This document shows positions 1 through 40,682 of a stretch of DNA of 64,000 nucleotides, one piece after another (positions within the stretch are counted from its first letter, which is position 1; every line of letters begins with the position of its first letter). The translations under genes were made by a program, and so were the position numbers. The stretch covers positions 736,001-800,000 of the forward strand of contig OZ244160.1 of assembly GCA_965216325.1 (NCBI GenBank), read 5' to 3'. Source of the DNA: Coraliomargarita sp. (GTDB lineage Bacteria > Verrucomicrobiota > Verrucomicrobiia > Opitutales > Coraliomargaritaceae). The notes under the pieces are model-generated. The model worked only from the letters and a program-made list of their open reading frames with translations. It did not search any database and was not told the origin of the DNA.

Positions 1-5391
<5,391 letters not shown>

Positions 5392-5558
5392 GGTTAAAGG
5401 GGGAGTCGTGGACGAAGTGAAAGTTTGAATGCACACGAATTTGGACGAATGTCCAATCAGAGGGATTATTTAGGGTGATATTTTGTGCAGTATATGAAGC
5501 AAGGTTCAAATTATTGAAACATTTAGGCGAGCGTGCGCGATGGAGAGGGTGCAAACCT

Positions 5559-5684
5559 ATGAATCAGTTCATTCCCGCACTCAGTTTCGGCTCTTTTGAC
5601 CTTTTGGGCGAAGCACTTTTCTTTGTGATTATCGTTGCTTGGCTCGCGATTATGCTACGACACCGAAGACGAGATGGATCTTAG
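5559..5684 (+). CDS. Possible small single-pass membrane protein (41 aa)
   Basis: MNQFIPALSFGSFDLLGEALFFVIIVAWLAIMLRHRRRDGS has a hydrophobic helix and basic tail, with purine-rich GGAGAGGG upstream. Confidence 0.35.
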   Translation: MNQFIPALSFGSFDLLGEALFFVIIVAWLAIMLRHRRRDGS

Positions 5685-7987
5685 TTTTTTTGTTCGGCTG
5701 CGTTGCGCAGGCGTGCTTGCAGGTGAGTACGTCGGATTTCGGTTTTGTTGTTTTTGACTGCCATAGAGTAGGCATCAATCGAGCCGACGAGGTAAACCTT
5801 ACTGCGAGCACGTGTGATACCTGTGTAGACCAGATTGCGCTGCAGCATCATGAAGTGCTGTTTCAGCAATGGGATGACGACGACGGGATACTCGCTTCCT
5901 TGGGACTTGTGGATGCTGATTGCGTAGGCGAGTTGGATCTCGGAGAGCTCACCTTTAGTGAATTCGACTGCTTCACCTGAGAAATCAACAGTCAGTCCAG
6001 AGCTGTCGGCGGCGATACTCTGGATGATTCCCGTATCGCCGTTGAAGATGCCCTTGTCGTAATTGTTGCGCGTCTGGAGGACTTTATCGCCGATACGGTA
6101 GGTTGTAGTTCCGTAGGGGAGTTCAGCAGGTAGGGGCTTGCGTGTCTTTTCGCGAAAGTGAGATTGCCGGGCTGGAACGTAATCGGGATCGGAACGCAGC
6201 CGTGAGAGGGCTTTTTCCTTGCTGTTCAGGCTTTGCTGGAGAGCCGTGTTTAGGGCTGCAATGCCTCCGGTTCCACGGTGCATGGGGGAGAGGATCTGCA
6301 GATCCTTGATGGGATCGATCTGATGCGCCTTTGGAATGTATTCACGGGCCAAATACGTAATGGCCTTTGCGCATTGTTCGGCATCGTCAGCCTCGATAAA
6401 AGTGATGTCGTTACTCGAATCCAAGTCGCGCAGGCTGGTTACGGTTTTGCCGGGATGGGATTCGCCTTTGAGAATCGAATGCGCGGTGGTAATGATGCCA
6501 CTGGTCTCGCCTTGGCGAAAAATGGTATCGAGTCGTGTGACTTTGGCTGGGGGGGCGGCCATTAGATCACCTAGCACGTTGCCGGAACCGACCGATGGTA
6601 GTTGATCTGCGTCGCCGACGAGGAGTAGATGTGCCGAGCTCGGAATGGCATCAAAGAGATTCGCGGCAAGTCGCGTGTCGAGCATGCTGGCTTCGTCAAC
6701 GATTAGAAGGTCGCAGGGCAGGGGATTGTCCTCGTTGTAAACGAACTCGCGCGTTGCACCGTCGTATTTGAGCAGGCGATGGATGGTGCTGGCTGGTGCG
6801 CCGGCTGCCTCGGAGAGCCGTTGTGCGGCACGCCCTGTTGGCGAAGCTAGTAGGATGCGACTGCGCTTGGCGCGCACAATGTCGACGATTGCACGTAGGA
6901 TCGTGGTTTTACCGGTGCCCGGGCCGCCGGTAATGATCGCAATTTTGGCCTGCAGAGACTGCTTGAGTGCGGCGGCTTGTTGGTCCGCAAAAGTGAAGCC
7001 TGCCTTGTTCTGGGCCCATGCAACCGCGGCATCGACTTTGATTGGGGGAATCGTGGATGTCGTCTCGTGGATGCGGTGTAGTGCTGTCGCAATCCGTTTC
7101 TCGGCACCCGCCAGTGGGGGCCGTTGGCAGGCGGGCCCGATGACTTCCTGTTTTTCGTTGTATGCAGTTACTGAATACAGTTTTTCTCGTTCAATGAGGG
7201 CACGGATACGCTGCTGTATGAGGTGTGGTTCAACGCCTAGCAGTTTGATCGCGTATTCTTCGATCGCTTGCTGGGTGCCTAGCGTATGACCCTCATCTTC
7301 GAGGTTCTGCATCGTGTGCAGTATGCCGGCGTCGACGCGCTCCTTGCTGTTGGTTGGGAAGCCTAGATTGAGAGCGAGTTTATCGGCAGTTTTGAAGCCA
7401 ATACGTTCGATATCTTCGGCAAGACGGTAAGGCTCGTCCTGTAGGATGCGCTTAGCGCCGCTGCCGTATTTTTTGACCAAGCGCACACACTGAGATGGGG
7501 TGACGCCATAGGTTTGCAGAAACATCATGACGTCGCGCACGGCTGCTTGTTCGTCCCAAGCCGCCTTAATTGATTTAGCGCGGGTCTTGCCGATGCCCGG
7601 CACCTCATGCAGACGACCGGAGTCTTCGCTGATGACTTTCAGGGTGTCGGCTCCGAAATGGTCGACGATCTTCTTGGCGTATGATTTGCCGATGCCATGC
7701 ACCATCCCGCTGCCCAGATACTTACGAATGCCGTGAATGGAGGCGGGGAGTTGCGATTTGAAATTGGCGATTTTGAATTGGTCGCCGTGTGTTGCGTGCT
7801 TGGTCCATTGACCGCTCAATTTGAGGGTTTCGCCACATTGCACGCCCGGCAGATTGCCGAGCACGGTGATCGGTTGTTTGCCCTCAGCAACAGAGAGTTC
7901 AGCCACGCAGTAGGCATTCTCTTCGTTGAAGAAGATGATGCGTTCAAGAACGCCGGTGAGGCTTTGTTCGTGGGCTGAGTCAGACAT
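5681..7987 (-). CDS. recD2: ATP-dependent RecD2-family DNA helicase
   Basis: 768 aa; N-terminal OB/HhH region, GGPGTGKTT, VDEASM, VGDADQLPSVG, AYAISIHKSQGSEY. Confidence 0.93.
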   Translation of the reverse strand: MSDSAHEQSLTGVLERIIFFNEENAYCVAELSVAEGKQPITVLGNLPGVQCGETLKLSGQWTKHATHGDQFKIANFKSQLPASIHGIRKYLGSGMVHGIGKSYAKKIVDHFGADTLKVISEDSGRLHEVPGIGKTRAKSIKAAWDEQAAVRDVMMFLQTYGVTPSQCVRLVKKYGSGAKRILQDEPYRLAEDIERIGFKTADKLALNLGFPTNSKERVDAGILHTMQNLEDEGHTLGTQQAIEEYAIKLLGVEPHLIQQRIRALIEREKLYSVTAYNEKQEVIGPACQRPPLAGAEKRIATALHRIHETTSTIPPIKVDAAVAWAQNKAGFTFADQQAAALKQSLQAKIAIITGGPGTGKTTILRAIVDIVRAKRSRILLASPTGRAAQRLSEAAGAPASTIHRLLKYDGATREFVYNEDNPLPCDLLIVDEASMLDTRLAANLFDAIPSSAHLLLVGDADQLPSVGSGNVLGDLMAAPPAKVTRLDTIFRQGETSGIITTAHSILKGESHPGKTVTSLRDLDSSNDITFIEADDAEQCAKAITYLAREYIPKAHQIDPIKDLQILSPMHRGTGGIAALNTALQQSLNSKEKALSRLRSDPDYVPARQSHFREKTRKPLPAELPYGTTTYRIGDKVLQTRNNYDKGIFNGDTGIIQSIAADSSGLTVDFSGEAVEFTKGELSEIQLAYAISIHKSQGSEYPVVVIPLLKQHFMMLQRNLVYTGITRARSKVYLVGSIDAYSMAVKNNKTEIRRTHLQARLRNAAEQKN

Positions 7988-8049
7988 TTGGGAAACCAGA
8001 GCAATAGGTGCTCATACGGATAGGTCAACTCGCAGTGAGGTTCTGGCAC

Positions 8050-26832: not shown

Positions 26833-26849
26833 TTGGCACTGGCATTGCT
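26833..26849 (+). promoter_or_regulatory. Sigma-54 (-24/-12) promoter for dnaK
   Basis: TTGGCAC-TGGCA-TTGCT matches TGGCAC-N5-TTGCW exactly. Confidence 0.75.
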
Positions 26850-30946: not shown

Positions 30947-31021
30947 GCTTAAAGACTCAAGATAGCGCTAATTTTGAGTAAGTTCACCGTTCAATGAAAT
31001 ATCATGTGAAATAAGCCGCTG

Positions 31022-31261
31022 GTGATCCATAAGCCCTTAATTCAGAGTGATTTGGGTGGGGGCTATGTTCTTGTGGCTGACGCTTGGGATTATGTTGATT
31101 TATGGTTGAGGCGAACAGGGAAGCATCAGGATGCGCGATTTTATTGGCAGCAAACTAGATTGTTTTTTGACGCATCTAGAATGCTTCCCAATGTGGCGTC
31201 GCCGCTTCCTGCCTATTACTGTTTCTTGAATGCAGTTAAACCGTTTACGAGCGGTTTATGA
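31022..31261 (+). pseudogene. Truncated remnant resembling the N-terminal part of YaaC-like proteins
   Basis: ARFYWQQTRLFFDASRMLPNVASPLPAYYCFLNAVK followed by an early stop; locally AT-richer DNA. Confidence 0.5.
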
Positions 31262-31322
31262 CAATTTATTAGCTTCGCGTATAGATTCCTTTGGCTAGAG
31301 CATTTTTATCTAGCCAAAGTGT

Positions 31323-32246
31323 GTGTGTGGCTTCGATATGGGCATAATGTTACGGACTATTCGCTTCCTTGCTTTAGTGGCCTGTCAGTATGCTGTGCTG
31401 GGTGCGGCTTCCTTTGTAAATCCATCATGGGATCTCGAGAGGATTTACCATGCCAGTCCGTATGCATTTTCGGGACAGCTGACATCCATCGAAATCGTTG
31501 CAGAAGTCAAAACAGGCGTGATGGGGGTTGAGCTGAGCGAGCTGTCGACAGATGACCCAGACTTGCGAGAGATTGTCTGGCGCAATGTGCGTCTTTATAC
31601 CTTTGCCGTGCAAGATGCTTTTAAAGGAGATGTGTTCGGTGAGATCGAAGTGTATGCACCAACGGCAGAAACTTTGTGGTCCTATTTCAAAACCGAACTC
31701 GGATATACGATTCTGAGCAAGGCGGCTGATCCGGATCCCTATGCGGGCAAATTATCCGTCGGGGAGCAGGGGCTCTTTTTTGTGAATGCCTTTAATGGTT
31801 CGACACTTCCCGTTCTGGTTGCCTTGCGCTCTGAGGAGCAAGCGGAACGTGGGATTCGTATTTTGCAGACTTTCAAGCAGACACAGGGCGTCGACCTTGC
31901 GGCAGTTATTGAGCTGGATGATACCATGCAGGCAGCTGCAGCGGAACAGGAGCGCGTGTATCTGGAAAGTTTAGAGAAGCGTTACTTCAAGATTACCATG
32001 CTTTCGAACCTTCAGGAGCGACGCTCTGAGCTGGAAAAAATCATAGCTGAATTAGGCTACGATTCCCTATGGTCACAGGATGCTTTTGAAGCCAAGCACG
32101 CTGGAAGTTTCGCGATGTTTGTAGAGGAGGGGCGAGTCCGTGATGCACCCTCAAGACCTGAATCCGGTAAGGAGCGCCTCTGGTATGAGTGCACTATGGA
32201 AATTGAGAAAATCGATATGATCCTGAAGGCCCGAACACAGAAATAG
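31323..32246 (+). CDS. Secreted hypothetical protein (start uncertain)
   Basis: 307-aa ORF; signal-peptide-like segment; beta-rich N-half and helical C-half. Confidence 0.7.
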   Translation: MCGFDMGIMLRTIRFLALVACQYAVLGAASFVNPSWDLERIYHASPYAFSGQLTSIEIVAEVKTGVMGVELSELSTDDPDLREIVWRNVRLYTFAVQDAFKGDVFGEIEVYAPTAETLWSYFKTELGYTILSKAADPDPYAGKLSVGEQGLFFVNAFNGSTLPVLVALRSEEQAERGIRILQTFKQTQGVDLAAVIELDDTMQAAAAEQERVYLESLEKRYFKITMLSNLQERRSELEKIIAELGYDSLWSQDAFEAKHAGSFAMFVEEGRVRDAPSRPESGKERLWYECTMEIEKIDMILKARTQK

Positions 32247-32249
32247 ACA

Positions 32250-32630
32250 ATGATTCAGGCTGAGATTTTAAAGGCGGATCAAGCGGATGAGTTTGAAACT
32301 GTAGAGCGCTGCGCAATTCTTGAACTGGCAAATGACGCAAGAGATCCTGCGCTATCGATTGCGCGTGCACGGGTTGCGCCCGGTGTCACAACTGCTTGGC
32401 ACAAGCTGGAGGGGGTCGCGGAGCGCTATGTGATTGTTTCCGGCCGCGGGCGTGTTGAAGTGGGCAGTTTGCCGGCGACTGAAGTGGAGTCGGGCGATGT
32501 CGTGCGGATTCCTGCTGGCGTTCGTCAGCGTATTACTAATGTCGGCGACGATGATTTGATTTTCTTCGCACTGTGCACGCCACGCTTTACTCCTGAGTGT
32601 TATATTGATTTGGAGAATAGGAACACATGA
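32250..32630 (+). CDS. Cupin-domain protein
   Basis: TAWHKL...ERYVIVSGRG...GDVVRIPAGVRQRITN. Confidence 0.88.
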   Translation: MIQAEILKADQADEFETVERCAILELANDARDPALSIARARVAPGVTTAWHKLEGVAERYVIVSGRGRVEVGSLPATEVESGDVVRIPAGVRQRITNVGDDDLIFFALCTPRFTPECYIDLENRNT

Positions 32631-33073
32631 TGAAACCATTTATAGCCTGCATCTTATTGACTGCTTGTTTGGTGAGTGGTTGTGGGAAGTCGCCCAAGCA
32701 GAAAGCTGAAGCGGTGTTTTCAGTGCAGGAGATCGAACAAGGCCTCCAATTGTTGCCGACCTATTGTAATACCTGTCACGGAGTTGGAGAGCGTGAGATC
32801 GATGAAATGCTCTCACCGCCCCTATGGGCGATTCGGGACTTTTATTTGGACCAGTATCCCGAGCCTGAGCCGTTTGTGGATGCGATGGTTGAATTTATGC
32901 AGTTCCCGAGAGAGGAGAATGCATTGATGCCGTCTGAAGTGAAGAACTATGGTTTGATGACGACCGTTTCCTTAAGTGAGGCTGATCTGCGTGCGACTGC
33001 GATTGTAATTTATGCGGGTCTGATTGAGCGCCCGTCATGGTATCGTGATTACGAAAAGCTGCATAGGAAATAG
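32627..33073 (+). CDS. Monoheme cytochrome c lipoprotein
   Basis: Lipobox LVSGC, CNTCH, distal Met candidates (ALMP, GLM). Confidence 0.85.
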   Translation: MMKPFIACILLTACLVSGCGKSPKQKAEAVFSVQEIEQGLQLLPTYCNTCHGVGEREIDEMLSPPLWAIRDFYLDQYPEPEPFVDAMVEFMQFPREENALMPSEVKNYGLMTTVSLSEADLRATAIVIYAGLIERPSWYRDYEKLHRK

Positions 33074-33137
33074 CCTGTTACGCTGGGTTTTTCCTTGCTG
33101 GCTTTTGTGCGCTTAGAATAGTCGGCTAACGTAACCG

Positions 33138-33572
33138 ATGGAACTGACTTCATTTACAGACTACTCGCTTCGGATCCTTATTTATCTTGCAGATGATACG
33201 GAGCGCTTGTCGTCGATCGATGAGTTGGCAGAGTTCTATCAGTTGTCACGTCACCATGTCGCTAAGATCGTAAAACGTCTCGCGGACTTGGAGTATCTGG
33301 AAACGATTCGTGGTAAGAATGGTGGCCTGCGTTTGGCGAAAGATCCGTCCGAGATCAATGTCGCGGCTGTGATTAAGCAGACGGAACCGCACTTCAATCT
33401 GGTTGAATGTATGTGTGAGGGGAAGACCTCCGCCTGTATGATCCATGGGCATTGTGGCTTAAAGGGAGCACTGGCTACGGCGCGTGGACATTTTTTTGCG
33501 CACCTTGCGAAGTTCTCACTCGCAGACGTTGCAATGAGCAAAAAAGAGTCGTCCAAGCTCGGGATTCGCTAA
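33138..33572 (+). CDS. nsrR: NO-sensing Rrf2-family regulator, NsrR-like
   Basis: MELTSFTDYSLR and RGKNGG closely match enterobacterial NsrR; Cys cluster VECMC...C...C. Confidence 0.85.
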   Translation: MELTSFTDYSLRILIYLADDTERLSSIDELAEFYQLSRHHVAKIVKRLADLEYLETIRGKNGGLRLAKDPSEINVAAVIKQTEPHFNLVECMCEGKTSACMIHGHCGLKGALATARGHFFAHLAKFSLADVAMSKKESSKLGIR

Positions 33573-33673
33573 GTTTTGGATAAAATCGCACCATGAATGC
33601 GATTTATGGGTTCATTTAAGGCGCTCATCTGAACTTTTTGAGTTTTTTGGGCAGTTTTGGCCTCATTTTTAGA

Positions 33674-33696
33674 AAGTGGTATTCTGTATGCTATTT
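33674..33696. promoter_or_regulatory. Candidate NsrR operator
   Basis: Imperfect 11-1-11 palindrome AAGTGGTATTC-T-GTATGCTATTT with a GTAT-N5-ATGC core, about 55 bp before the next ATG. Confidence 0.55.
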
Positions 33697-33752
33697 ATGG
33701 TCTCAGTTTCATCCGAAGCTAACTGAAGATACTAACCTGAGAACACACTATC

Positions 33753-34349
33753 ATGAAGAAAGCGATACTAGTGCTACCCGCGGCCTGGGCTGCGATTGCA
33801 TCCATGCTGTCCTTTACGGGCTGCAATGACTCCGAAGCCTCCGCCTCTACAGGCGTTTCCTATGAAAAACTCACCGATGCCTTGCATATGGTGCTCGAGA
33901 ATGACCGGACTGTTTACACTAAGAAGGTGGTTAACCGACTGGTGAAGGAAGATAAGGTCATCAAGGCGACTGAAGAGTGGGCTGAAGATAAGACTTTGCC
34001 ACTGCCTGCGCAGATGTTCCGCATGGGTGCTGAGTTGACTGCAAGTAAAGATGCGTGGTTCAGTTACTCGCTGCAGTCTCTGTGGCCGATTAACAAGTCC
34101 AATGCGGAAGGCCAAACCGAGGTTGAGAAGGAAGGTCTCCAGTTCGTTGCAGACAACGGTGGCACCGCTCCGTTCTACGGCGAAGAAGAACTCGGTGGTA
34201 AGAAATATTTCACAGCAGTCTATGCGGACGTCGGCGTCGCTCCCGTATGCATCAGTTGCCACAATGAGCACAAGGACAGTCCAAAGACTGACTTCAAGCT
34301 CGGCGACGTGATGGGTGGAGTCGTGATTCGTATTCCAATGGATAGCTAG
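33753..34349 (+). CDS. Tll0287/DUF3365-like c-type heme lipoprotein
   Basis: Lipobox FTGC, PLPAQMFR, SLWPINK, CISCH, FKLGDVMGG. Confidence 0.82.
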   Translation: MKKAILVLPAAWAAIASMLSFTGCNDSEASASTGVSYEKLTDALHMVLENDRTVYTKKVVNRLVKEDKVIKATEEWAEDKTLPLPAQMFRMGAELTASKDAWFSYSLQSLWPINKSNAEGQTEVEKEGLQFVADNGGTAPFYGEEELGGKKYFTAVYADVGVAPVCISCHNEHKDSPKTDFKLGDVMGGVVIRIPMDS

Positions 34350-34364
34350 CTCCTACGCTAAGCC

Positions 34365-34766
34365 GTGCGATCTTTTGTATACATAGTGATGTCCATGCTT
34401 CTCCTTGCTGCAGCCTTCAGTGGCTGTGGCAAGGAGGAGCCTAAGGGCTCTGCTGCGGAAGCGGCAAAGCCTTTTGACCCGATGGCCCTTGATTTGACCG
34501 ATCCGAATTTGATTGCGGGGCGGGCAACTTGGGTTGCGACCTGTGGCCAATGTCACGTTCGTGGTCTCGGTGGAGCGCCCATTATTGCTGACAAGGCGGC
34601 GTGGGCGCCACGAATCGCGAAGGGGAAGGGGGCACTCTATGATCATGCGATCAACGGCTTTTCCGGCCCACAAATGAATGAGATGCCACCGAAGGGTGGC
34701 TTTACTGAACTAACTGATGAAGAGGTGAAGCGAGCGGTCGATTTTGTGATCTTCGCCAGCCAATAA
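34365..34766 (+). CDS. Cytochrome c5-family lipoprotein
   Basis: FSGC lipobox, CGQCH, GAP...WAPR, MPPKGG, LTDEEV. Confidence 0.9.
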   Translation: MRSFVYIVMSMLLLAAAFSGCGKEEPKGSAAEAAKPFDPMALDLTDPNLIAGRATWVATCGQCHVRGLGGAPIIADKAAWAPRIAKGKGALYDHAINGFSGPQMNEMPPKGGFTELTDEEVKRAVDFVIFASQ

Positions 34767-34798
34767 CCCAACCTTACTAACACACATATTTATATTCT

Positions 34799-35173
34799 AT
34801 GAGCTCAATTTACGAACGTATTGGAGGTGAGCCTGCAATTGATGCGGCTGTTGATTTGTTCTATGTCAAAGTGCTAGCGGATGACCGCATTAAGCACTTT
34901 TTTGATGGCATTCCAATGGAACGCATGCATGGCCACCAGAAGAAGTTTCTGACTATGGCACTTGGCGGCCCAAACAACTACGATGGTCGTGGTATGGCTG
35001 CCGCGCACGCTCGTTTGGTCAATGAAATGGGACTGAATGACACGCATTTTGATGCAGTGATCGAGAATCTTGGAGCGACCCTCACGGAACTGGGTGTCCC
35101 AGGTGATTTGATCGGTGAAGCTGCTGCTGTGGCAGAAAGCACTCGCGAGCAAGTGCTCGGCCGCGCCTCTTAG
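34799..35173 (+). CDS. Group I truncated hemoglobin (trHbN-like)
   Basis: SIYERIGG, FYVKVLAD, HQKKFL, GGPNNYDGR, AAH, HFDAV. Confidence 0.93.
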   Translation: MSSIYERIGGEPAIDAAVDLFYVKVLADDRIKHFFDGIPMERMHGHQKKFLTMALGGPNNYDGRGMAAAHARLVNEMGLNDTHFDAVIENLGATLTELGVPGDLIGEAAAVAESTREQVLGRAS

Positions 35174-35201
35174 TCGGACTCGAATCACTGAGTTTGTGCA
35201 T

Positions 35202-35227
35202 TGCTGGTGGCCTTCGGGCCACCGGCG
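35202..35227 (+). other. GC-rich hairpin with UUCG loop between the globin and oxidoreductase genes
   Basis: TGCTGGTGGCC-TTCG-GGCCACCGGCG; no strong T-run follows. Confidence 0.55.
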
Positions 35228-35315
35228 GGGCTTTGCCATGTTTGTTGGTGGCCCGTGATTTGACCAGTGGTTGATTGTGCCACTTGGCCTAAGACCTGCT
35301 TAGTTGTTTTATTGC

Positions 35316-37298
35316 ATGGCTTCTCCTAAGAACGCATCCAAACCCAGCGCTGAGCCATTGCTGATTGTTGGCAATGGTATGGTCAGTTGGCGCTTGTGTC
35401 AGCAGTTGGTGGAGCGTGGTGTCCATGAGTCTCGACGGATTCTTGTCTTTGGTGAGGAGCCATATGCGGCATATGATCGCGTCAACCTGACTAAGTTCTT
35501 TGAACTTGATGACAGTGATGACTTGTTATTGGCATCGAAAGACTGGTATGCGCAGCATGATATAACGCTGCATACGAATCGACGTATCCTGAAGTTGGAT
35601 ACAGCTCAGAAGCTCGTGGTCGATGACTCAGGCGAAGAGCATTCCTATGGTGACTGTGTGCTGTCTACGGGAAGTAGTGCATTTGTTCCGCCCATTGAGG
35701 GCGTCGATGCCGATAATGTTTTCGTCTACAGAACGATCGAAGATATCGAGCGCATAAAGCACGCAGCGGAAACCGCTAAGTCCGGTGTTGTTATCGGGGG
35801 CGGGCTACTGGGGCTTGAGGCTGCTCAGGTTCTAAAGGATTTTGATCTGCAGACCTGCATTGTTCAGGCTGCGAATACACTAATGAGCCGTCAGTTGAAC
35901 GAGGACGGTGGTAGTTACTTGCTACGTGAAGTCGCCGAGTTGGGCATGTCGGTTCGACTGACTACCAATACGCAACGAATCGTTCCGACTGCACATGGCT
36001 TGGATTTAGAGCTGAATAAGGGTGAGCCTTTGAGTGCGGATCTCGTGGTGATTGCTGCTGGTATTAAGCCACGTGACGAGCTTGCTGTGGATGCTGGACT
36101 TTCAACGGCGACCCGAGGGGGCATTATCGTCAATAACCGCCTGCAGACAGATGATCCGAATGTCTATGCGATTGGCGAATGTGCATCGCACAAGGGTAAG
36201 GTTTATGGACTGGTTGCGCCCGGCTACGAGATGGCTGATGCACTGGCGCGCTCGCTGGCTGGCAAGAAGCGTGTGCGGTATCGTGGCAGTGACGAGTCGT
36301 GCCGACTCAAGCTACTGGGCGTTGAGGTGAGTGTCTTTGGCGATTATATGCAAGAGGGCGATTACCATGTGCATCGTGGTGAGAAGACTTATCGTTCCCT
36401 GGTGCTCAAGCGTGGCAAATTGATCGGTGCGACTGTCATTGGACCATGGGAGCAAGCTGCCGAAATCGAGCGTGCGGTTCGTGAAGAGCGTCGCATCAGT
36501 AAACGTCTGATCGCGGCTTTCGAGCGCACTGGAGATCTCTTTGCCGAACTGGCCATCGACAATGTCTTGGAGTGGTCGGACCTGACCATTGTCTGTAATT
36601 GCACTCGCACGAATTGTATTCAGTTGAAACAAGCGGTGGTTGGTGGCTGTTCATCGGTCGACGCATTGACTGAGTCTACCGGAGCCGGATCGGTCTGCGG
36701 TTCCTGTCGTCCTCAGCTGGCTCAATTTGTGGGTGACTCCTCGGCACGCTTTGTCGATACAGCTTCGCAAAAGGGGGGGCGTCTGTTGATCGTCTCTGCT
36801 ATTGTGGCTCTACTCGCTTTGGCGGCGATCTTCTTTGTGCCGGGATTACCTGCTGCGGAAAGCGTGCAGACTGGCTACTATGAATTTACCTGCCTCTGGC
36901 AGGACTCCCTGACTAAGCAAATCACTGGATTCACCATAGCCGGGCTTTCGCTGATTGCCTTGCTACTGTCTGCGCGCAAGCGCTTACGGTTTCTGAATTT
37001 TGGCAATTATGGTTTCTGGCGTGCGCTGCATTCTTGGTTAGGCGTCACGACTTTGGTTGGGGTGTTCTTGCACACGGGATTACACTTTGGAGACAATCTG
37101 AACCTCTGGCTCTTGCTGTGTTTCCTAGGGCTCAATTTGGCGGGTGGTTTGGCGGCCATTGCGGTTGCCGCGGAGCGACGCTTCGCGGGGCCAGTCGGAG
37201 GACGCATCCGCGCCTTGGCGACCAAGGCGCACATCATTTTCTTTTTGCCGTATCCTGTCCTGCTCGGCTTTCACATCGCTAAGGTCTATATTTACTGA
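35316..37298 (+). CDS. NirB-like FAD/NAD(P)H oxidoreductase + BFD-like [2Fe-2S] + membrane domain with putative di-heme b
   Basis: GNGMVS, YDRVNL, GGGLLGLE, AIGECA; CNC...CGSC; about 5 TM helices with two H-x13-H pairs; no siroheme domain. Confidence 0.88.
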   Translation: MASPKNASKPSAEPLLIVGNGMVSWRLCQQLVERGVHESRRILVFGEEPYAAYDRVNLTKFFELDDSDDLLLASKDWYAQHDITLHTNRRILKLDTAQKLVVDDSGEEHSYGDCVLSTGSSAFVPPIEGVDADNVFVYRTIEDIERIKHAAETAKSGVVIGGGLLGLEAAQVLKDFDLQTCIVQAANTLMSRQLNEDGGSYLLREVAELGMSVRLTTNTQRIVPTAHGLDLELNKGEPLSADLVVIAAGIKPRDELAVDAGLSTATRGGIIVNNRLQTDDPNVYAIGECASHKGKVYGLVAPGYEMADALARSLAGKKRVRYRGSDESCRLKLLGVEVSVFGDYMQEGDYHVHRGEKTYRSLVLKRGKLIGATVIGPWEQAAEIERAVREERRISKRLIAAFERTGDLFAELAIDNVLEWSDLTIVCNCTRTNCIQLKQAVVGGCSSVDALTESTGAGSVCGSCRPQLAQFVGDSSARFVDTASQKGGRLLIVSAIVALLALAAIFFVPGLPAAESVQTGYYEFTCLWQDSLTKQITGFTIAGLSLIALLLSARKRLRFLNFGNYGFWRALHSWLGVTTLVGVFLHTGLHFGDNLNLWLLLCFLGLNLAGGLAAIAVAAERRFAGPVGGRIRALATKAHIIFFLPYPVLLGFHIAKVYIY

Positions 37299-38647
37299 TG
37301 TTTAATTTTCTCAAACGTAATGGTCTATGGATGTTCCTGTTGGCGGTGCTGACGGGGTATCTTGGTTTTGCGATATCCGGAGGGCAGGAACAAGTCTTCA
37401 TGCCTGGAGAGAGCACACATGGGCACCATCAGATCGAGATGTCTTGCACGGAGTGTCACACCAAGAACATGGGAGTGCGACAAGACGCGTGCACACGCTG
37501 TCATGCTGAGGAATTGGATCGTGTCTCCGATTCGCACCCGGTGATTAAGTTTAAAGATCCGCGTAATGCTTCACGTCTCGAGAAGATCGAAGCAACGAAG
37601 TGTATTACCTGTCACCGCGAACACCAGCCTGAGCTTACCGGCGATATGGGGGTCACGTTGCCCATCGATTATTGTGCGCACTGTCACCAAAAGATCGCCG
37701 AGCAACGTCCGTCACACGTGGGGATGGGCTTTGATACTTGCGCAACTGCGGGTTGTCATAATTTCCACGATAATACTGCACTCTATGAGCGTTTTCTCAC
37801 GGATCATTTGGATGATCCGGACTTTCGCTCGATTGCTCTGATGCGCGTTCGCGATCTGTATGATAGCCCAGAGGCTGCGGCCGGACCGGCACTGGCGAAG
37901 GACCAAGCAGACGTGCCGGAATCGGTCGAATATACGCACCGCATTTTGCATGACTGGTCGACCACTGCGCACGCGGCTGCAGGTGTCAATTGCACCGATT
38001 GTCATAATGCCAAGAATGAGGCGACGGGTGTTGTGGAATGGCATGACCAGCCGAGTTATGAATCCTGCCAGAAATGTCATACGGATGAGACCAAGGGCTT
38101 CCTCGCAGGGAAGCACGGTATGCGCCTTGCTGCTGGACTGAGCCCGATGACGCCGGGGATGGCAAAAATCCCGATGCGTCCCGAAGCGGCGCATCATGAG
38201 CTGAATTGTATTTCCTGCCACAGTAGTCACCGTTTCAATACACAGACTGCCGCGGTCGACTCGTGCTTAAAGTGCCATAACGATGAGCACTCACTCGCGT
38301 ACAAGGGTTCACTGCACTTCCAAACCTATCGTGATGCCTTGTCCGGCGCTAAGCCGGCCGATTCCGCGGTGAGTTGTGCAACCTGCCACATGCCACGTGT
38401 CGAGCGCACGAAATTTGGTGAGACCGTAACCATCGTTGATCACAACCAGAATAACAGTCTACGCCCCAACGAGAAGATGGTGCGGACATCCTGCATGCAA
38501 TGCCATGGTCTGCAGTTCACCCTCAACGCGCTCGCAGATGAGGAACTGATTCGAAACAACTTCCAAGGGCGTCCGAAGGTCCACGTCGAAAGTTTAGACA
38601 TGGCCCGGGAAGAGCTGCGCAAGAGTGAAGCACGCAAGCAGGACTAA
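37298..38647 (+). CDS. Multiheme cytochrome c (10 CxxCH + 1 CxxxxCH)
   Basis: N-terminal hydrophobic anchor/signal; CTECH, CTRCH, CITCH, CAHCH, CATAGCH, CTDCH, CQKCH, CISCH, CLKCH, CATCH, CMQCH; TGATG overlap with the upstream gene. Confidence 0.93.
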   Translation: MFNFLKRNGLWMFLLAVLTGYLGFAISGGQEQVFMPGESTHGHHQIEMSCTECHTKNMGVRQDACTRCHAEELDRVSDSHPVIKFKDPRNASRLEKIEATKCITCHREHQPELTGDMGVTLPIDYCAHCHQKIAEQRPSHVGMGFDTCATAGCHNFHDNTALYERFLTDHLDDPDFRSIALMRVRDLYDSPEAAAGPALAKDQADVPESVEYTHRILHDWSTTAHAAAGVNCTDCHNAKNEATGVVEWHDQPSYESCQKCHTDETKGFLAGKHGMRLAAGLSPMTPGMAKIPMRPEAAHHELNCISCHSSHRFNTQTAAVDSCLKCHNDEHSLAYKGSLHFQTYRDALSGAKPADSAVSCATCHMPRVERTKFGETVTIVDHNQNNSLRPNEKMVRTSCMQCHGLQFTLNALADEELIRNNFQGRPKVHVESLDMAREELRKSEARKQD

Positions 38648-38725
38648 GTCACCAGAAGTCTACAAGCAGTCTTGTCAGATTCGACTGAGAGTGTAGTGTA
38701 GAGCTTACTCTTACGTTCGCTTTTT

Positions 38726-39748
38726 ATGAAATCCTTACCGACGCGTCTGCTCACTCTTGTTTCACTCGGCTCATTACTGGCACTGACTGGTTGTAGTCAC
38801 TTTTCTAACAAATCTCAGCCAGATCGTTATAGTGCGGTGGCAGCTGCCTTAGCCAGTCAGAAGGGGGTCAATTCCATGCCGCTCATGCCACCACGGGAGG
38901 ATGTGCGTGTGGGGGATGTGTTCATCGTTGATGGGGAATCAGGCCAGATTCAGTTTCTAAATGCGGCTTCATGGGCAAGTTTGCCTCTGTTGGAGACAGT
39001 CCAGGAGCACTATGCTCAACGCCCATTGTACCGTAAGACTGATCCAGAGCTCTTTATGGATGACTATGAGGGCGAGGAGATGACGCCAGAGCCCTCAGTT
39101 AGTAATATTGAGCTCCGACCCATGCTAATTGGTCCGCTTGCACATGTGCAGGGGCGCAACGGTTTCTGGAAGTTAGTGCCCCCCGAAGTGCTAGCGTTAA
39201 CGCTGCCCCCGCAGCGTCGCCCAAATGTAGAAGTCTCGGTGCGTGCGAGTGCTGCCCAGTCCTATTCGTTACCGAAGTCAGTAGTGATCGATCGCGCTCT
39301 GAAGGATGGTACTGTAATACCTCTGATTGCGGATAACCTCAATTTAGTCACTAGCACGTCGACAGTCCGACTGTATGTGGTGAGCGAGGTAATCTATTCG
39401 CGTGTTATCAGTATGGGGGTGCGTCCATTGGCAGCCAAGGATCAGCGGAATTATTGGGACTTTCATGATTTTGCGACGGGTCCGACCAAGGGCCTGGACC
39501 GTGCGGCAAATTTGAATCGTCAGCTCCGTGATGAGAATCTGGATGATTTGCCTGGTGGTGAAGTGCGCTTTGTCTCGGTCACGGATGATTTGGTGCTCTT
39601 CCGCGCAACGATGGAAGAGCCGATTGCGATCGGTGTGCGTGGAGTCGTGTTGGACGTCGATCCTGAAACTGGTGAGGTGCTACAAGTCTCACTGACTCAC
39701 AATGCACCACTGCCATTCATTGAAGCAGAATTAGATGACGAGGTTTAG
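38726..39748 (+). CDS. Hypothetical lipoprotein
   Basis: Lipobox LTGC; 340-aa ORF. Confidence 0.75.
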   Translation: MKSLPTRLLTLVSLGSLLALTGCSHFSNKSQPDRYSAVAAALASQKGVNSMPLMPPREDVRVGDVFIVDGESGQIQFLNAASWASLPLLETVQEHYAQRPLYRKTDPELFMDDYEGEEMTPEPSVSNIELRPMLIGPLAHVQGRNGFWKLVPPEVLALTLPPQRRPNVEVSVRASAAQSYSLPKSVVIDRALKDGTVIPLIADNLNLVTSTSTVRLYVVSEVIYSRVISMGVRPLAAKDQRNYWDFHDFATGPTKGLDRAANLNRQLRDENLDDLPGGEVRFVSVTDDLVLFRATMEEPIAIGVRGVVLDVDPETGEVLQVSLTHNAPLPFIEAELDDEV

Positions 39749-39857
39749 TGTCTGACATTGTGCGCGGGCGGGCGACGTTTCCGTGGCGCTAAAATGTAGT
39801 TCACTGGATTCTGCAATTGTCATAGATCAAAGGAGCGCTCAAAAACGCTCCTTTTTT

Positions 39858-40682
39858 ATGCAAGCAGAAGACCTCGAACTCGATTTGATTGATATTTACG
39901 GTGGCACACAGGCACGTATGGCGACCATTGATGAAGCCATTACCAGTTATGCCGATGCAATGCTGGATGGTGCGGTCTTTCCACCAATCGTGGTCTTTTA
40001 CGATGGCTCCAAATATTGGTTGGCTGATGGCTTTCATCGTTTTCTGGCGGCACAACGAATCGAGAAGGCTGAAATTTCTGCAGAAGTGCATGCGGGTTCC
40101 CGCACGGATGCCTTGCGCTTTGCACTGGGTGCAAATGCGACCAATGGCATCTACCGTTCGAATGCTGATAAGCGCAATGCGGTTGAGATCGCTCTGGAAG
40201 AATGGCCGAACATGGCCAATTCGGTCATTGCCGAGCTGTGCAAGGTGTCGGCCGACCTGGTGCGCCGTTGCCGCGTAGAGATGGAACGGGATGAGCGGAT
40301 CGAGCCGCAAACCCGTGTCACGGGGCGCGACGGTAAAGAGTATCCAGCGGGCATTGAGCGTCAGCCACGCGGTGAAGGAAGTGCTCCCAAAGACGATGGC
40401 GGCAGCAATGCCGGGGGTGGTGCTGGTGGCGGCAAGGCCAAGAAGGACGACTTTGGTGCGCCGGGGGGCAGCAATGCCGAGATTGAGGCGGAAGCGCGCA
40501 AAATGATCCGCGAGGGCGAGATTAAGCACTCAGAATTGGACAAGCTCGTCAGCGCGACGGCCTTGGATTATGCTGACACCGCGATCAATGTTTTGGACCG
40601 CATGAAGGATGAAGATCCGCGTCGCCCTGAAGCGATCACTCGCATTGAGCGTTGGTTGGCGAAGCAGAAGGTGGGCGTCTAG
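39858..40682 (+). CDS. ParB/Srx N-terminal domain + HTH protein
   Basis: FPPIVVF...WLADGFHRFLA; NSVIAELCKVSADLVRR HTH; Gly-rich linker. Confidence 0.8.
   Translation: MQAEDLELDLIDIYGGTQARMATIDEAITSYADAMLDGAVFPPIVVFYDGSKYWLADGFHRFLAAQRIEKAEISAEVHAGSRTDALRFALGANATNGIYRSNADKRNAVEIALEEWPNMANSVIAELCKVSADLVRRCRVEMERDERIEPQTRVTGRDGKEYPAGIERQPRGEGSAPKDDGGSNAGGGAGGGKAKKDDFGAPGGSNAEIEAEARKMIREGEIKHSELDKLVSATALDYADTAINVLDRMKDEDPRRPEAITRIERWLAKQKVGV

Follow-up and report, generated by a model that had tools for sequence, protein, structure and literature searches.

A probable Opitutales form of a widespread NAD(P)H-dependent electron-export module associated with nitrate assimilation

The stretch of DNA analyzed here, which we call the window, comprises 64,000 nucleotides (nt) of Coraliomargarita sp. 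contig OZ244160.1 (assembly GCA_965216325.1, positions 736,001 to 800,000) and carries a cluster of co-oriented genes for a flavoprotein fused to a membrane domain, an 11-heme cytochrome c, two small heme c lipoproteins, a truncated hemoglobin, and an Rrf2-family regulator. On balance, we think it probable that this cluster is the Opitutales form of a widespread electron-export module that serves nitrogen-oxide removal in nitrate assimilation. The path of electrons from NAD(P)H to periplasmic hemes is well supported; the role of nitric oxide (NO) and the periplasmic substrate are what we infer. At the core of the module is a triad of proteins: the fusion of a NirB-like N-terminal flavoprotein with a membrane domain, the membrane-anchored 11-heme cytochrome c, and a Tll0287-like heme c lipoprotein.

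The conserved module

The module and its regulator occupy the following positions of the window (aa, amino acids; values after family accessions are E-values):

33138..33572, + strand: Rrf2-family Fe-S regulator, NsrR/RirA-like, 144 aa (PF02082, 8.6e-32, 110.5 bits)
33753..34349, + strand: Tll0287-like (DUF3365, sCache_haem) heme c lipoprotein, 198 aa (PF11845, 2.2e-17, 64.3 bits versus a cut-off of 24.1)
34365..34766, + strand: class I cytochrome c (c5/c555-like) lipoprotein, 133 aa (PF13442, 3.7e-12)
34799..35173, + strand: group I truncated hemoglobin (trHbN type), 124 aa (PF01152, 2.6e-16, 60.3 bits)
35304..37298, + strand: fusion protein, 664 aa (matches positions 1-466 of 794 in the NirB model TIGR02374)
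35304..36740, + strand: cytoplasmic part of the fusion, with FAD/NAD(P)H, rubredoxin-reductase-like C-terminal, and BFD-type [2Fe-2S] domains (PF07992, 7e-48; PF04324, 1.9e-7)
36741..37298, + strand: membrane domain of the fusion, with five helices and four invariant histidines (from conservation and an AlphaFold2 (AF2) model)
37298..38647, + strand: membrane-anchored 11-heme cytochrome c, 449 aa (ten CXXCH motifs and one CX4CH)

A first-pass annotation, made from the sequence of the window alone, had described seven co-oriented genes as one system, namely the genes listed above preceded by one more cytochrome c gene. All seven open reading frames (ORFs) do lie on the + strand, and no model for Hmp, NorVW, Hcp, NorB, or NrfA scores above its cut-off within the cluster, just as that annotation had it. 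However, the seven genes do not make one conserved system: the conserved unit comprises five genes plus the regulator, and no more than three closely related genomes have the first cytochrome c. In total, the operon specifies at least 16 heme sites and one [2Fe-2S] center.

A pattern scan for the 11-heme cytochrome, with one genome per species, yielded at least 579 confirmed relatives. Going by record titles, carriers of the module include Verrucomicrobiota, Planctomycetota, Gamma-, Beta-, and Alphaproteobacteria, Myxococcota, Lentisphaera, Poribacteria, Acidobacteriota, and Binatia, and the closest public loci are those of Coraliomargarita and other Opitutales. Gene neighborhoods were compared in 80 non-duplicate loci (79 of 80 from the pattern scan plus L003 from an earlier homolog search). 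L001 and L002 were left out because they are on the same contigs as L009 and L010, L004 to L008 because the flavoprotein part alone matches and the cytochrome is absent, and L045 because its hits are identical to those of L046. The latter two come from bins labeled Roseibium (L045) and Pontiella (L046), with the same gene coordinates and scores in every hit; one of the two bins has probably been assigned this contig in error. ORFs were called mechanically in the loci, with up to 8 kb of flanking DNA per side, and searched with the window proteins, and all neighboring genes were clustered.

The fusion gene adjoins the 11-heme cytochrome gene in 78 of the 80 loci, and the full triad is present in 75; thus, the co-occurrence across phyla that the first-pass annotation had proposed as a check is found. 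Globins of any type lie beside the module in 43 loci (32 of the PF00042 type and 11 truncated), nitrate-assimilation genes (NrtA/B, NasA-like, NirA, and ANTAR regulator) in 33, and one or the other in 57, while a c5-like cytochrome is found in 27. Three features set the Opitutales form apart: its Rrf2/NsrR-like regulator, a globin of group I, and a conserved promoter of the sigma-54 type. Full-text searching of the literature produced no description of the module, in keeping with the earlier statement that no characterized counterpart was known, and a protein atlas lookup led only to the query protein's own family under automatic names.

The fusion of a flavoprotein with a membrane domain

The first-pass annotation had called the fusion protein a membrane-anchored NirB-like flavoprotein. 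Its cytoplasmic part is indeed NirB-like, corresponding to the N-terminal half of NirB, but the protein is not merely anchored: it is fused to a probable di-heme b domain. The N-terminal 480 residues match the FAD/NAD(P)H and BFD-type [2Fe-2S] region of NirB (TIGR02374), the large subunit of NAD(P)H nitrite reductase, whereas the siroheme/[4Fe-4S] domain of NirB is lacking and the five-helix membrane domain with its four histidines takes its place. Membership in the NirB family was rejected (score of 434.6 versus a cut-off of 578.35; no match to PF01077 or PF03460). The true start of the fusion gene is probably the ATG at 35316; relatives are 659-660 aa long and align from residue 5.

In an alignment of 24 fusions from several phyla, three sets of residues are invariant: two dinucleotide-binding glycine motifs, the BFD-domain cysteines C431, C433, C465, and C468, and the membrane histidines, which form the pairs H576/H590 and H643/H657 on two transmembrane helices, with a spacing of 14 residues within each pair. 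A word-limited homolog search with the membrane domain found 36 proteins, and a profile scan of 1.84 billion representatives found 420 at E <= 1e-30. Among the best 150 of these 420 representatives, all 150 have two H-x13-H motifs in their last 140 residues; 88 are 600-720 aa long, 3 exceed that length, and 59 fall short of it, in many cases probably as fragments. The AF2 model of the membrane domain (predicted local distance difference test (pLDDT) score, 88; predicted template-modeling (pTM) score, 0.83) has five transmembrane helices and a short helix in the periplasmic segment. The loop after helix 2 is basic and, by the positive-inside rule, sets the orientation: each pair has one histidine near each membrane face, and the C terminus is outside. 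The membrane domain probably holds two b hemes, an inner and an outer one.

Which family this domain comes from is less clear-cut. It would share a four-helix di-heme bundle with the prokaryotic cytochrome b561 family (Escherichia coli CybB, a superoxide oxidase, and HyaC) and DUF4405; however, those proteins exchange electrons with quinones and have no flavoprotein fusion, and the Pfam scores of the fusion are below cut-off. Among 51 members, sub-threshold matches were obtained to DUF4405 in 16 and to Ni_hydr_CYTB in 6, with DUF4405 at 23 bits versus a cut-off of 26.7. Foldseek comparison of the membrane-domain model with the PDB gave no match at E <= 0.001. In a wide structural search, CybB (5oc0; Z of 10.7, root mean square deviation of 3.2 A over 128 residues) ranked among talin bundles (Z of 11-12), and HyaC (4gd3) reached a Z of 8.7, values of a kind that helical bundles also reach by chance.

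There is a parallel in logic with the flavocytochromes b of the NADPH oxidase/ferric reductase type (NOX/DUOX), where cytoplasmic NAD(P)H also reduces a flavin and, through it, two stacked bis-His b hemes across the membrane. In NOX, the histidine spacing within the pairs is about the same as in the window fusion. The parts, however, are different: the flavin domain of NOX/DUOX is unrelated to that of the fusion, which is N-terminal and of the pyridine-nucleotide disulfide oxidoreductase type; the membrane domain belongs to another family; and the fusion adds a [2Fe-2S] center and has a multiheme cytochrome rather than O2 as its acceptor. Foldseek hits of the membrane domain to DUOX1 were insignificant (E of 0.27). 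Membership in the NOX/ferric reductase family was rejected, given the N-terminal PF07992 flavin domain and a weak PF01794 match in 1 of 51 members. By this architecture, electrons would pass from NAD(P)H to FAD, the [2Fe-2S] center, the inner heme b, the outer heme b, and on to the eleven c hemes of the cytochrome.

The 11-heme cytochrome and its predicted docking on the fusion

The first-pass annotation had counted about 11 hemes in the last protein of the cluster, and ten CXXCH motifs plus one CX4CH do add up to 11 heme sites. All eleven motifs are invariant in 28 homologs, as are 11 histidines outside the motifs, one per heme, and sequence identity within the family is about 50% across phyla. 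That annotation had also left it open whether the periplasmic multiheme protein was a terminal enzyme or a wire. The invariant histidines suffice for all hemes to be six-coordinate, and the simplest reading of the alignment is that the protein would be a wire of eleven such hemes. The AF2 model of the 11-heme protein is poor (28-row alignment; mean pLDDT, 50.2; pTM, 0.29). As a separate observation, ResB/CcsA-type cytochrome c biogenesis genes lie within or beside the module in 6 of the 80 loci (L003, at 4463-7990, L011, L012, L014, L084, and L086); their role may lie in handling the unusual CX4CH site or the large number of hemes.

Some database records label relatives of this cytochrome as NrfA/nitrite reductase or cytochrome c3. 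The likeness to NrfA and the octaheme nitrite reductases is confined to two heme-pair modules in the C-terminal half, which resemble NrfA hemes 4/5 (profile E-values of 2e-8 to 5e-8), whereas the window cytochrome has no CXXCK motif, its alignment with NrfA does not extend to the catalytic region, and it has eleven hemes and a membrane anchor. Membership in the NrfA/cytochrome c552 family was rejected: the eleven motifs all end in His, and the model scores are below cut-off (21.4 versus 24.1 for PF02335, Cytochrom_C552; 18.2 versus 595 for NF008339).

These two short stretches bear on an alternative in which the 11-heme protein, with or without the Tll0287-like protein, is a periplasmic reductase that uses NAD(P)H electrons to make ammonium from nitrite or hydroxylamine, for assimilation and not for detoxification. 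The presence of the module in nitrate-assimilation clusters (the 33 loci counted above) would fit such a salvage function, as would the level of sequence identity, which is very high for a wire, and the sigma-54-type promoter described below, since promoters of this type are typical of nitrogen-regulated genes. On the other hand, the missing CXXCK, the unaligned catalytic part of NrfA, and the sub-threshold Cytochrom_C552 score all speak against it; cytoplasmic NirA and/or NirBD are already encoded in the genomes, and the cytoplasmic globin and the NsrR-like gene are left unexplained. We therefore regard a salvage reductase as unlikely.

The stop codon of the fusion gene and the start codon of the cytochrome gene share one base; judging from this arrangement, the cytochrome gene is translationally coupled to the fusion gene. 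The complex structure prediction that the first-pass annotation had suggested was run with the membrane domain, two hemes, and cytochrome residues 1-175. The complex scored 0.74, a passing value, versus 0.00 for the best of three controls. The score expresses the model's own confidence and was obtained with our own alignments and added hemes, unlike the calibration set, where 116 of 157 solved complexes and 2 of 215 mismatched pairs came up to the pass mark. Agreement between runs covers at least 95% of contacts, and the partner has a pLDDT of at least 75. Every contact is on the periplasmic side of the membrane domain, where the model puts the anchor of the cytochrome: its N-terminal helix (residues 11-26) rests on the outer half of the final helix of the fusion (645-664), and the conserved periplasmic loop 594-600 of the fusion touches cytochrome residues 32-38 and the first heme motif. 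This interface agrees with the topology derived independently, and the model supports the idea that the cytochrome docks onto the membrane domain.

Two lipoproteins at the end of the proposed chain

The Tll0287-like lipoprotein has a single CXXCH motif. In 28 triad-linked homologs, its C166, C169, and H170 are invariant, and so are Met88, in the LPAQMFR motif, and His173, while no invariant or nearly invariant cysteine is found outside the CXXCH motif in these 28 sequences. In Tll0287 itself, a cysteine is the distal heme ligand; the triad-linked subfamily, with an invariant Met and no cysteine besides those of CXXCH, therefore differs from it. The protein shares with the Tll0287/sCache_haem family the PF11845 domain with a C-terminal CXXCH and falls in the stand-alone class, but, unlike the family described in a recent preprint, it is a lipoprotein encoded next to an 11-heme cytochrome. 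That preprint describes stand-alone members as redox proteins with a potential of +123 mV and rapid autoxidation; in its accessible part, it does not settle their function and mentions no gene association (bioRxiv 10.64898/2026.02.01.703092). The second lipoprotein resembles class I cytochromes c, with PDB matches to c-555 (9.9e-20), ScyA (3e-10), and c5 (1e-8 to 1e-9). From the eleven c hemes, electrons would pass to the Tll0287-like and c5-like lipoproteins and from these to a periplasmic acceptor.

A chain that ends in two carrier-type cytochromes, one c5/c555-like and one Tll0287-like with an invariant Met and no Cys ligand, would also suit a general NAD(P)H:cytochrome c reductase. Such an enzyme would bypass quinones and the bc1 complex and keep periplasmic c cytochromes reduced as donors to peroxidases or cbb3-type oxidases, with redox balance or the scavenging of oxygen as its purpose, and nitrogen oxides would not be its direct substrate. 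The potential of +123 mV and the carrier-like behavior of the stand-alone family member measured in the same preprint are in line with this idea, and so are the cbb3-type oxidases encoded in the genome and the 11-heme protein without an evident open catalytic heme. What it leaves unexplained is the company that the module keeps: the tie with NasA (all 8 module-bearing genomes in the sample described below), the globins in 43 loci, and the NsrR-like regulator. Moreover, the nearest oxidase genes are 41 kb from the module, and no oxidase gene recurs among the neighbors. We consider a general cytochrome c reductase to be rather unlikely.

The globin and the link to nitrate assimilation

The best PDB matches of the window globin include GlbN (1.9e-38), THB1 (1.8e-28), and Mycobacterium tuberculosis HbN (1.6e-20), and its 19 best matches (to an E-value of 1.6e-18) are cyanoglobins, group 1 truncated hemoglobins, THB1/THB4, HbN, and protist or algal truncated hemoglobins. 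No signal peptide was found in its translation. As the counts given above indicate, globins travel with the module well beyond the window, as the first-pass annotation would have it. In the source genome, searched with the PF00042 model, there is no globin of that family.

Within the phylum, the distribution of the module is patchy: it was found in 8 of 401 sampled genomes, the source genome included. A NasA-like match (E <= 1e-100) is present in all 8 module-bearing genomes versus 42 of the 393 others, a tie that is a strong hint rather than a statistic, because related genomes are not independent. In the source genome (3.06 Mb, one contig, 99.98% complete), a nitrate-assimilation cluster lies 2 Mb from the module (L108, G000:C1:2764000-2783000) and encodes a major facilitator superfamily transporter, NirA, a Fer4_11-DmsC membrane fusion, a NasA-like subunit, and a CysJ-like reductase. 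The NasA-like subunit has no twin-arginine signal and is cytoplasmic. NirBD is encoded at 0.56 Mb of the same genome. Several further features of these regions were recorded. An IS110 transposase gene is inserted after the transporter gene of the nitrate cluster; in other phyla, the module has Fer4-DmsC genes among its neighbors in 7 loci and CysJ-like genes in 10; and, 4 kb before nirBD, there is a gene for a group II intron reverse transcriptase/maturase (L106, 2381-3778).

The source genome has three heme-copper oxidase genes, one without a type assignment, one a cbb3 CcoNO fusion, and one divergent and cbb3-like; NorB was not called among these heme-copper oxidase matches. The divergent cbb3-like oxidase (L111, G000:C1:728421-731171; ccoN model, 237 bits versus a cut-off of 583) is encoded 7.6 kb before the window together with CcoO- and CcoP-like partners and may be an oxygen or NO reductase.

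The tie with nasA would also suit electron flow in the opposite direction, from the periplasmic cytochrome pool through the 11-heme protein and the b hemes to the [2Fe-2S] center, in support of cytoplasmic nitrate reduction. The nitrate/nitrite couples are positive enough to take electrons from c-type cytochromes, which speaks for this route. However, the nitrate clusters beside the module have a CysJ-like reductase of their own, and inward movement of electrons opposes the membrane potential. Reverse flow is thus very improbable.

Two characterized systems come close to the proposed pairing of globin and flavoprotein. In the Bjgb-Flp system, the genes for a globin and for an NAD(P)H flavoprotein accompany those for nitrate assimilation, and the two proteins guard against NO arising as a by-product, with Flp re-reducing Bjgb (PMC4724949). 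The differences are that Flp is soluble, that Bjgb is a single-domain PF00042 globin whereas the window globin is a group I truncated one, and that no membrane domain, multiheme cytochrome, or Tll0287-like protein appears in what is described there (PMC4724949). In Chlamydomonas, THB1 is a group I truncated globin that receives electrons from the FAD of a nitrate-assimilation flavoenzyme and carries out NO dioxygenation; it differs in being eukaryotic, in having nitrate reductase itself as its partner, and, in the part of the text accessible to us, in having no periplasmic branch (PMC4620153).

Regulator and promoter

Two sequence elements lie between the regulator gene and the five-gene operon:

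33583..33605, no strand assigned: perfect inverted repeat with 8-base arms and a 7-base spacer, a candidate operator or upstream activator site, from the sequence
33677..33692, + strand: sigma-54-type -24/-12 element (GG-N10-GC), 76 nt before the Tll0287-like gene

The first-pass annotation had called the regulator NsrR-like. It does belong to the Rrf2 family of winged-helix proteins, and NsrR is its best model, but the score is below the NsrR cut-off and that of RirA is nearly equal (NsrR, NF008240, 119.2 bits versus a cut-off of 182; RirA, 112.9 versus 193). These two scores leave room for a regulator of the iron- or Fe-S-status type (RirA- or IscR-like), which would control heme-rich genes, with the nitrosative-stress link in the window coincidental; the large iron demand of the operon would be in line with this. 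Several observations argue otherwise. NsrR is the best-scoring model in all three orthologs tested; the three predicted cluster-binding cysteines C91, C100, and C106 and also D8 are invariant in 9 of 9 orthologs; and a truncated globin is encoded in the operon. In Streptomyces NsrR, Asp8 is the fourth cluster ligand. Furthermore, in locus L018 a palindrome at the same place resembles the enterobacterial NsrR site. A regulator of the iron type is accordingly very unlikely.

The inverted repeat at 33583..33605 answers to the box that the first-pass annotation had placed before the first downstream gene. Allowing at most 3 mismatches, 0.41 matches to it per window are expected by chance, and it is the sole exact copy in the genome; the only near copy, with 1 mismatch, was set aside in the regulon search because it falls within the coding sequence of an acetyl-CoA synthetase. 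L009 has the same arms, and L010 has them with one mismatch.

The sigma-54-type element was missed in the first-pass account of regulation. It recurs before the orthologous gene in 9 of 10 related Opitutales loci, which with the window makes 10 of 11 regions, versus 0 of 11 control windows; in 9 of these 10 regions it lies 43-76 nt before the ORF start, and in L017 it lies at the mechanically called start. In other lineages, such an element precedes the fusion gene in 13 of 73 loci versus 0 of 73 control windows. The source genome encodes RpoN and three sigma-54 activators of the REC-AAA-HTH type; no NorR-type (GAF) activator was found in it, the three full sigma-54 activators being of the REC type. 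As an aside, a perfect sigma-54-type element with full consensus flanks also lies just before dnaK (window positions 26834-26849); it is one of three full-consensus copies in the genome and is unusual for a heat-shock gene. In four runs guessed to be RNA on the basis of the same species label, no contig fell on window positions 31000-40000.

Proposed function and the evidence against it

In the interpretation that we favor, export of electrons would serve the disposal of NO or a related nitrogen oxide arising in nitrate assimilation. By analogy with Bjgb-Flp and THB1, the cytoplasmic group I globin would use O2 to oxidize NO and would regain its electrons from the flavoprotein part of the fusion, while the periplasmic branch would deal with NO or a related oxide outside the membrane or at low oxygen. 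The sigma-54-type promoter of the five-gene operon suggests nitrogen control through an NtrC-type activator, and the position of the operon directly behind the gene for an NsrR-like Fe-S regulator suggests an NO-responsive input. The first-pass annotation had likewise proposed that cytoplasmic NAD(P)H feeds both the globin and the periplasmic hemes: the architecture fits export, but its choice of NO, nitrite, or hydroxylamine as the substrate is purely inferential.

A number of observations weigh against this interpretation. On the biochemical side, outward movement of electrons costs membrane potential, and the invariant histidines outside the motifs are enough for eleven six-coordinate (bis-His) hemes, so that no open catalytic heme is evident. 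The docking score carries the limits stated with it. According to the preprint, a stand-alone Tll0287-family protein of Pseudomonas putida binds NO only weakly (bioRxiv 10.64898/2026.02.01.703092). On the genomic side, 23 of the 80 loci have neither a globin nor nitrate-assimilation genes within the flanks examined. The linkage to NsrR on which the first-pass annotation was built holds for the window, where an Rrf2/NsrR-like gene is present, but an Rrf2 regulator lies beside the module in only 9 of the 80 loci, one of these being a weak match on the opposite strand, and elsewhere the module sits in nitrate-assimilation clusters. On the regulatory side, the regulator scores below the cut-off of the NsrR model. 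Other Opitutales loci have different palindromes at the place of the inverted repeat, and the repeat itself lies about 90 bases before the promoter, a distance that would suit either a repressor blocking activation or an activator site. The sigma-54 motif is not enriched in the genome (27 found versus 26.7 expected); its weight comes from conservation at one position and not from genome-wide enrichment.

A broader version of this interpretation is possible, although we find it doubtful. In it, the fusion, the 11-heme cytochrome, and the Tll0287-like protein would make up a new class of quinone-independent transmembrane redox complex that consumes cytoplasmic NAD(P)H to destroy NO or a related oxide in the periplasm, a bacterial analog of NADPH oxidase with unrelated components. 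The complex would be an obligatory companion of nitrate assimilation in many phyla, and in Opitutales a dedicated NO-sensing Rrf2 repressor would act on a sigma-54 promoter. In a still bolder variant, an autoxidizable terminal heme would deliberately produce periplasmic superoxide to quench NO.

Accessory features of the locus

Two further features of the cluster lie outside the conserved proteins:

32627..33073, + strand: monoheme cytochrome c lipoprotein, 148 aa (lipobox, one CXXCH)
35202..35227, + strand: stable GC-rich RNA hairpin of 11 bp, in the 131 bases that separate the globin gene from the fusion gene

The 148-aa lipoprotein has weak matches to cytochrome c (Pfam, 4e-3; PDB, 4.9e-3), and a homolog is found in 2 of the 80 loci, L009 and L010. 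By its distribution, this first cytochrome c is a lineage-specific accessory outside the conserved module. Its gene overlaps the upstream cupin gene by 4 bases. At 31323-32630 of the window, a gene for a 307-aa protein with no family match is followed, after a 3-base gap, by the small cupin gene, and then by that of the first cytochrome c. These three genes and one for a 340-aa protein 3' of the operon are common only to the two closest Coraliomargarita loci.

The fold of 35170-35310, the region that contains the hairpin, has an energy of -57.5 kcal/mol (z of -3.55; 1 of 200 shuffles as good), and no U-run follows the hairpin. Processing or attenuation within the operon may take place here and give its two halves different levels.

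Significance

If the interpretation that we favor is correct, many aerobic nitrate-assimilating bacteria, among them marine Verrucomicrobiota, Planctomycetota, and Gammaproteobacteria, would own an unrecognized, quinone-free route for NAD(P)H electrons across the inner membrane. It would also provide a function for the stand-alone half of the large DUF3365/Tll0287 family, for a very conserved 11-heme cytochrome, and for a flavocytochrome b fusion of a new kind. The known connection of NO detoxification with nitrate assimilation, as in Bradyrhizobium and Chlamydomonas, would thereby reach into the periplasm, and the Opitutales form, with both an NsrR-like regulator and a promoter of the sigma-54 type, lends itself to tests of regulation.

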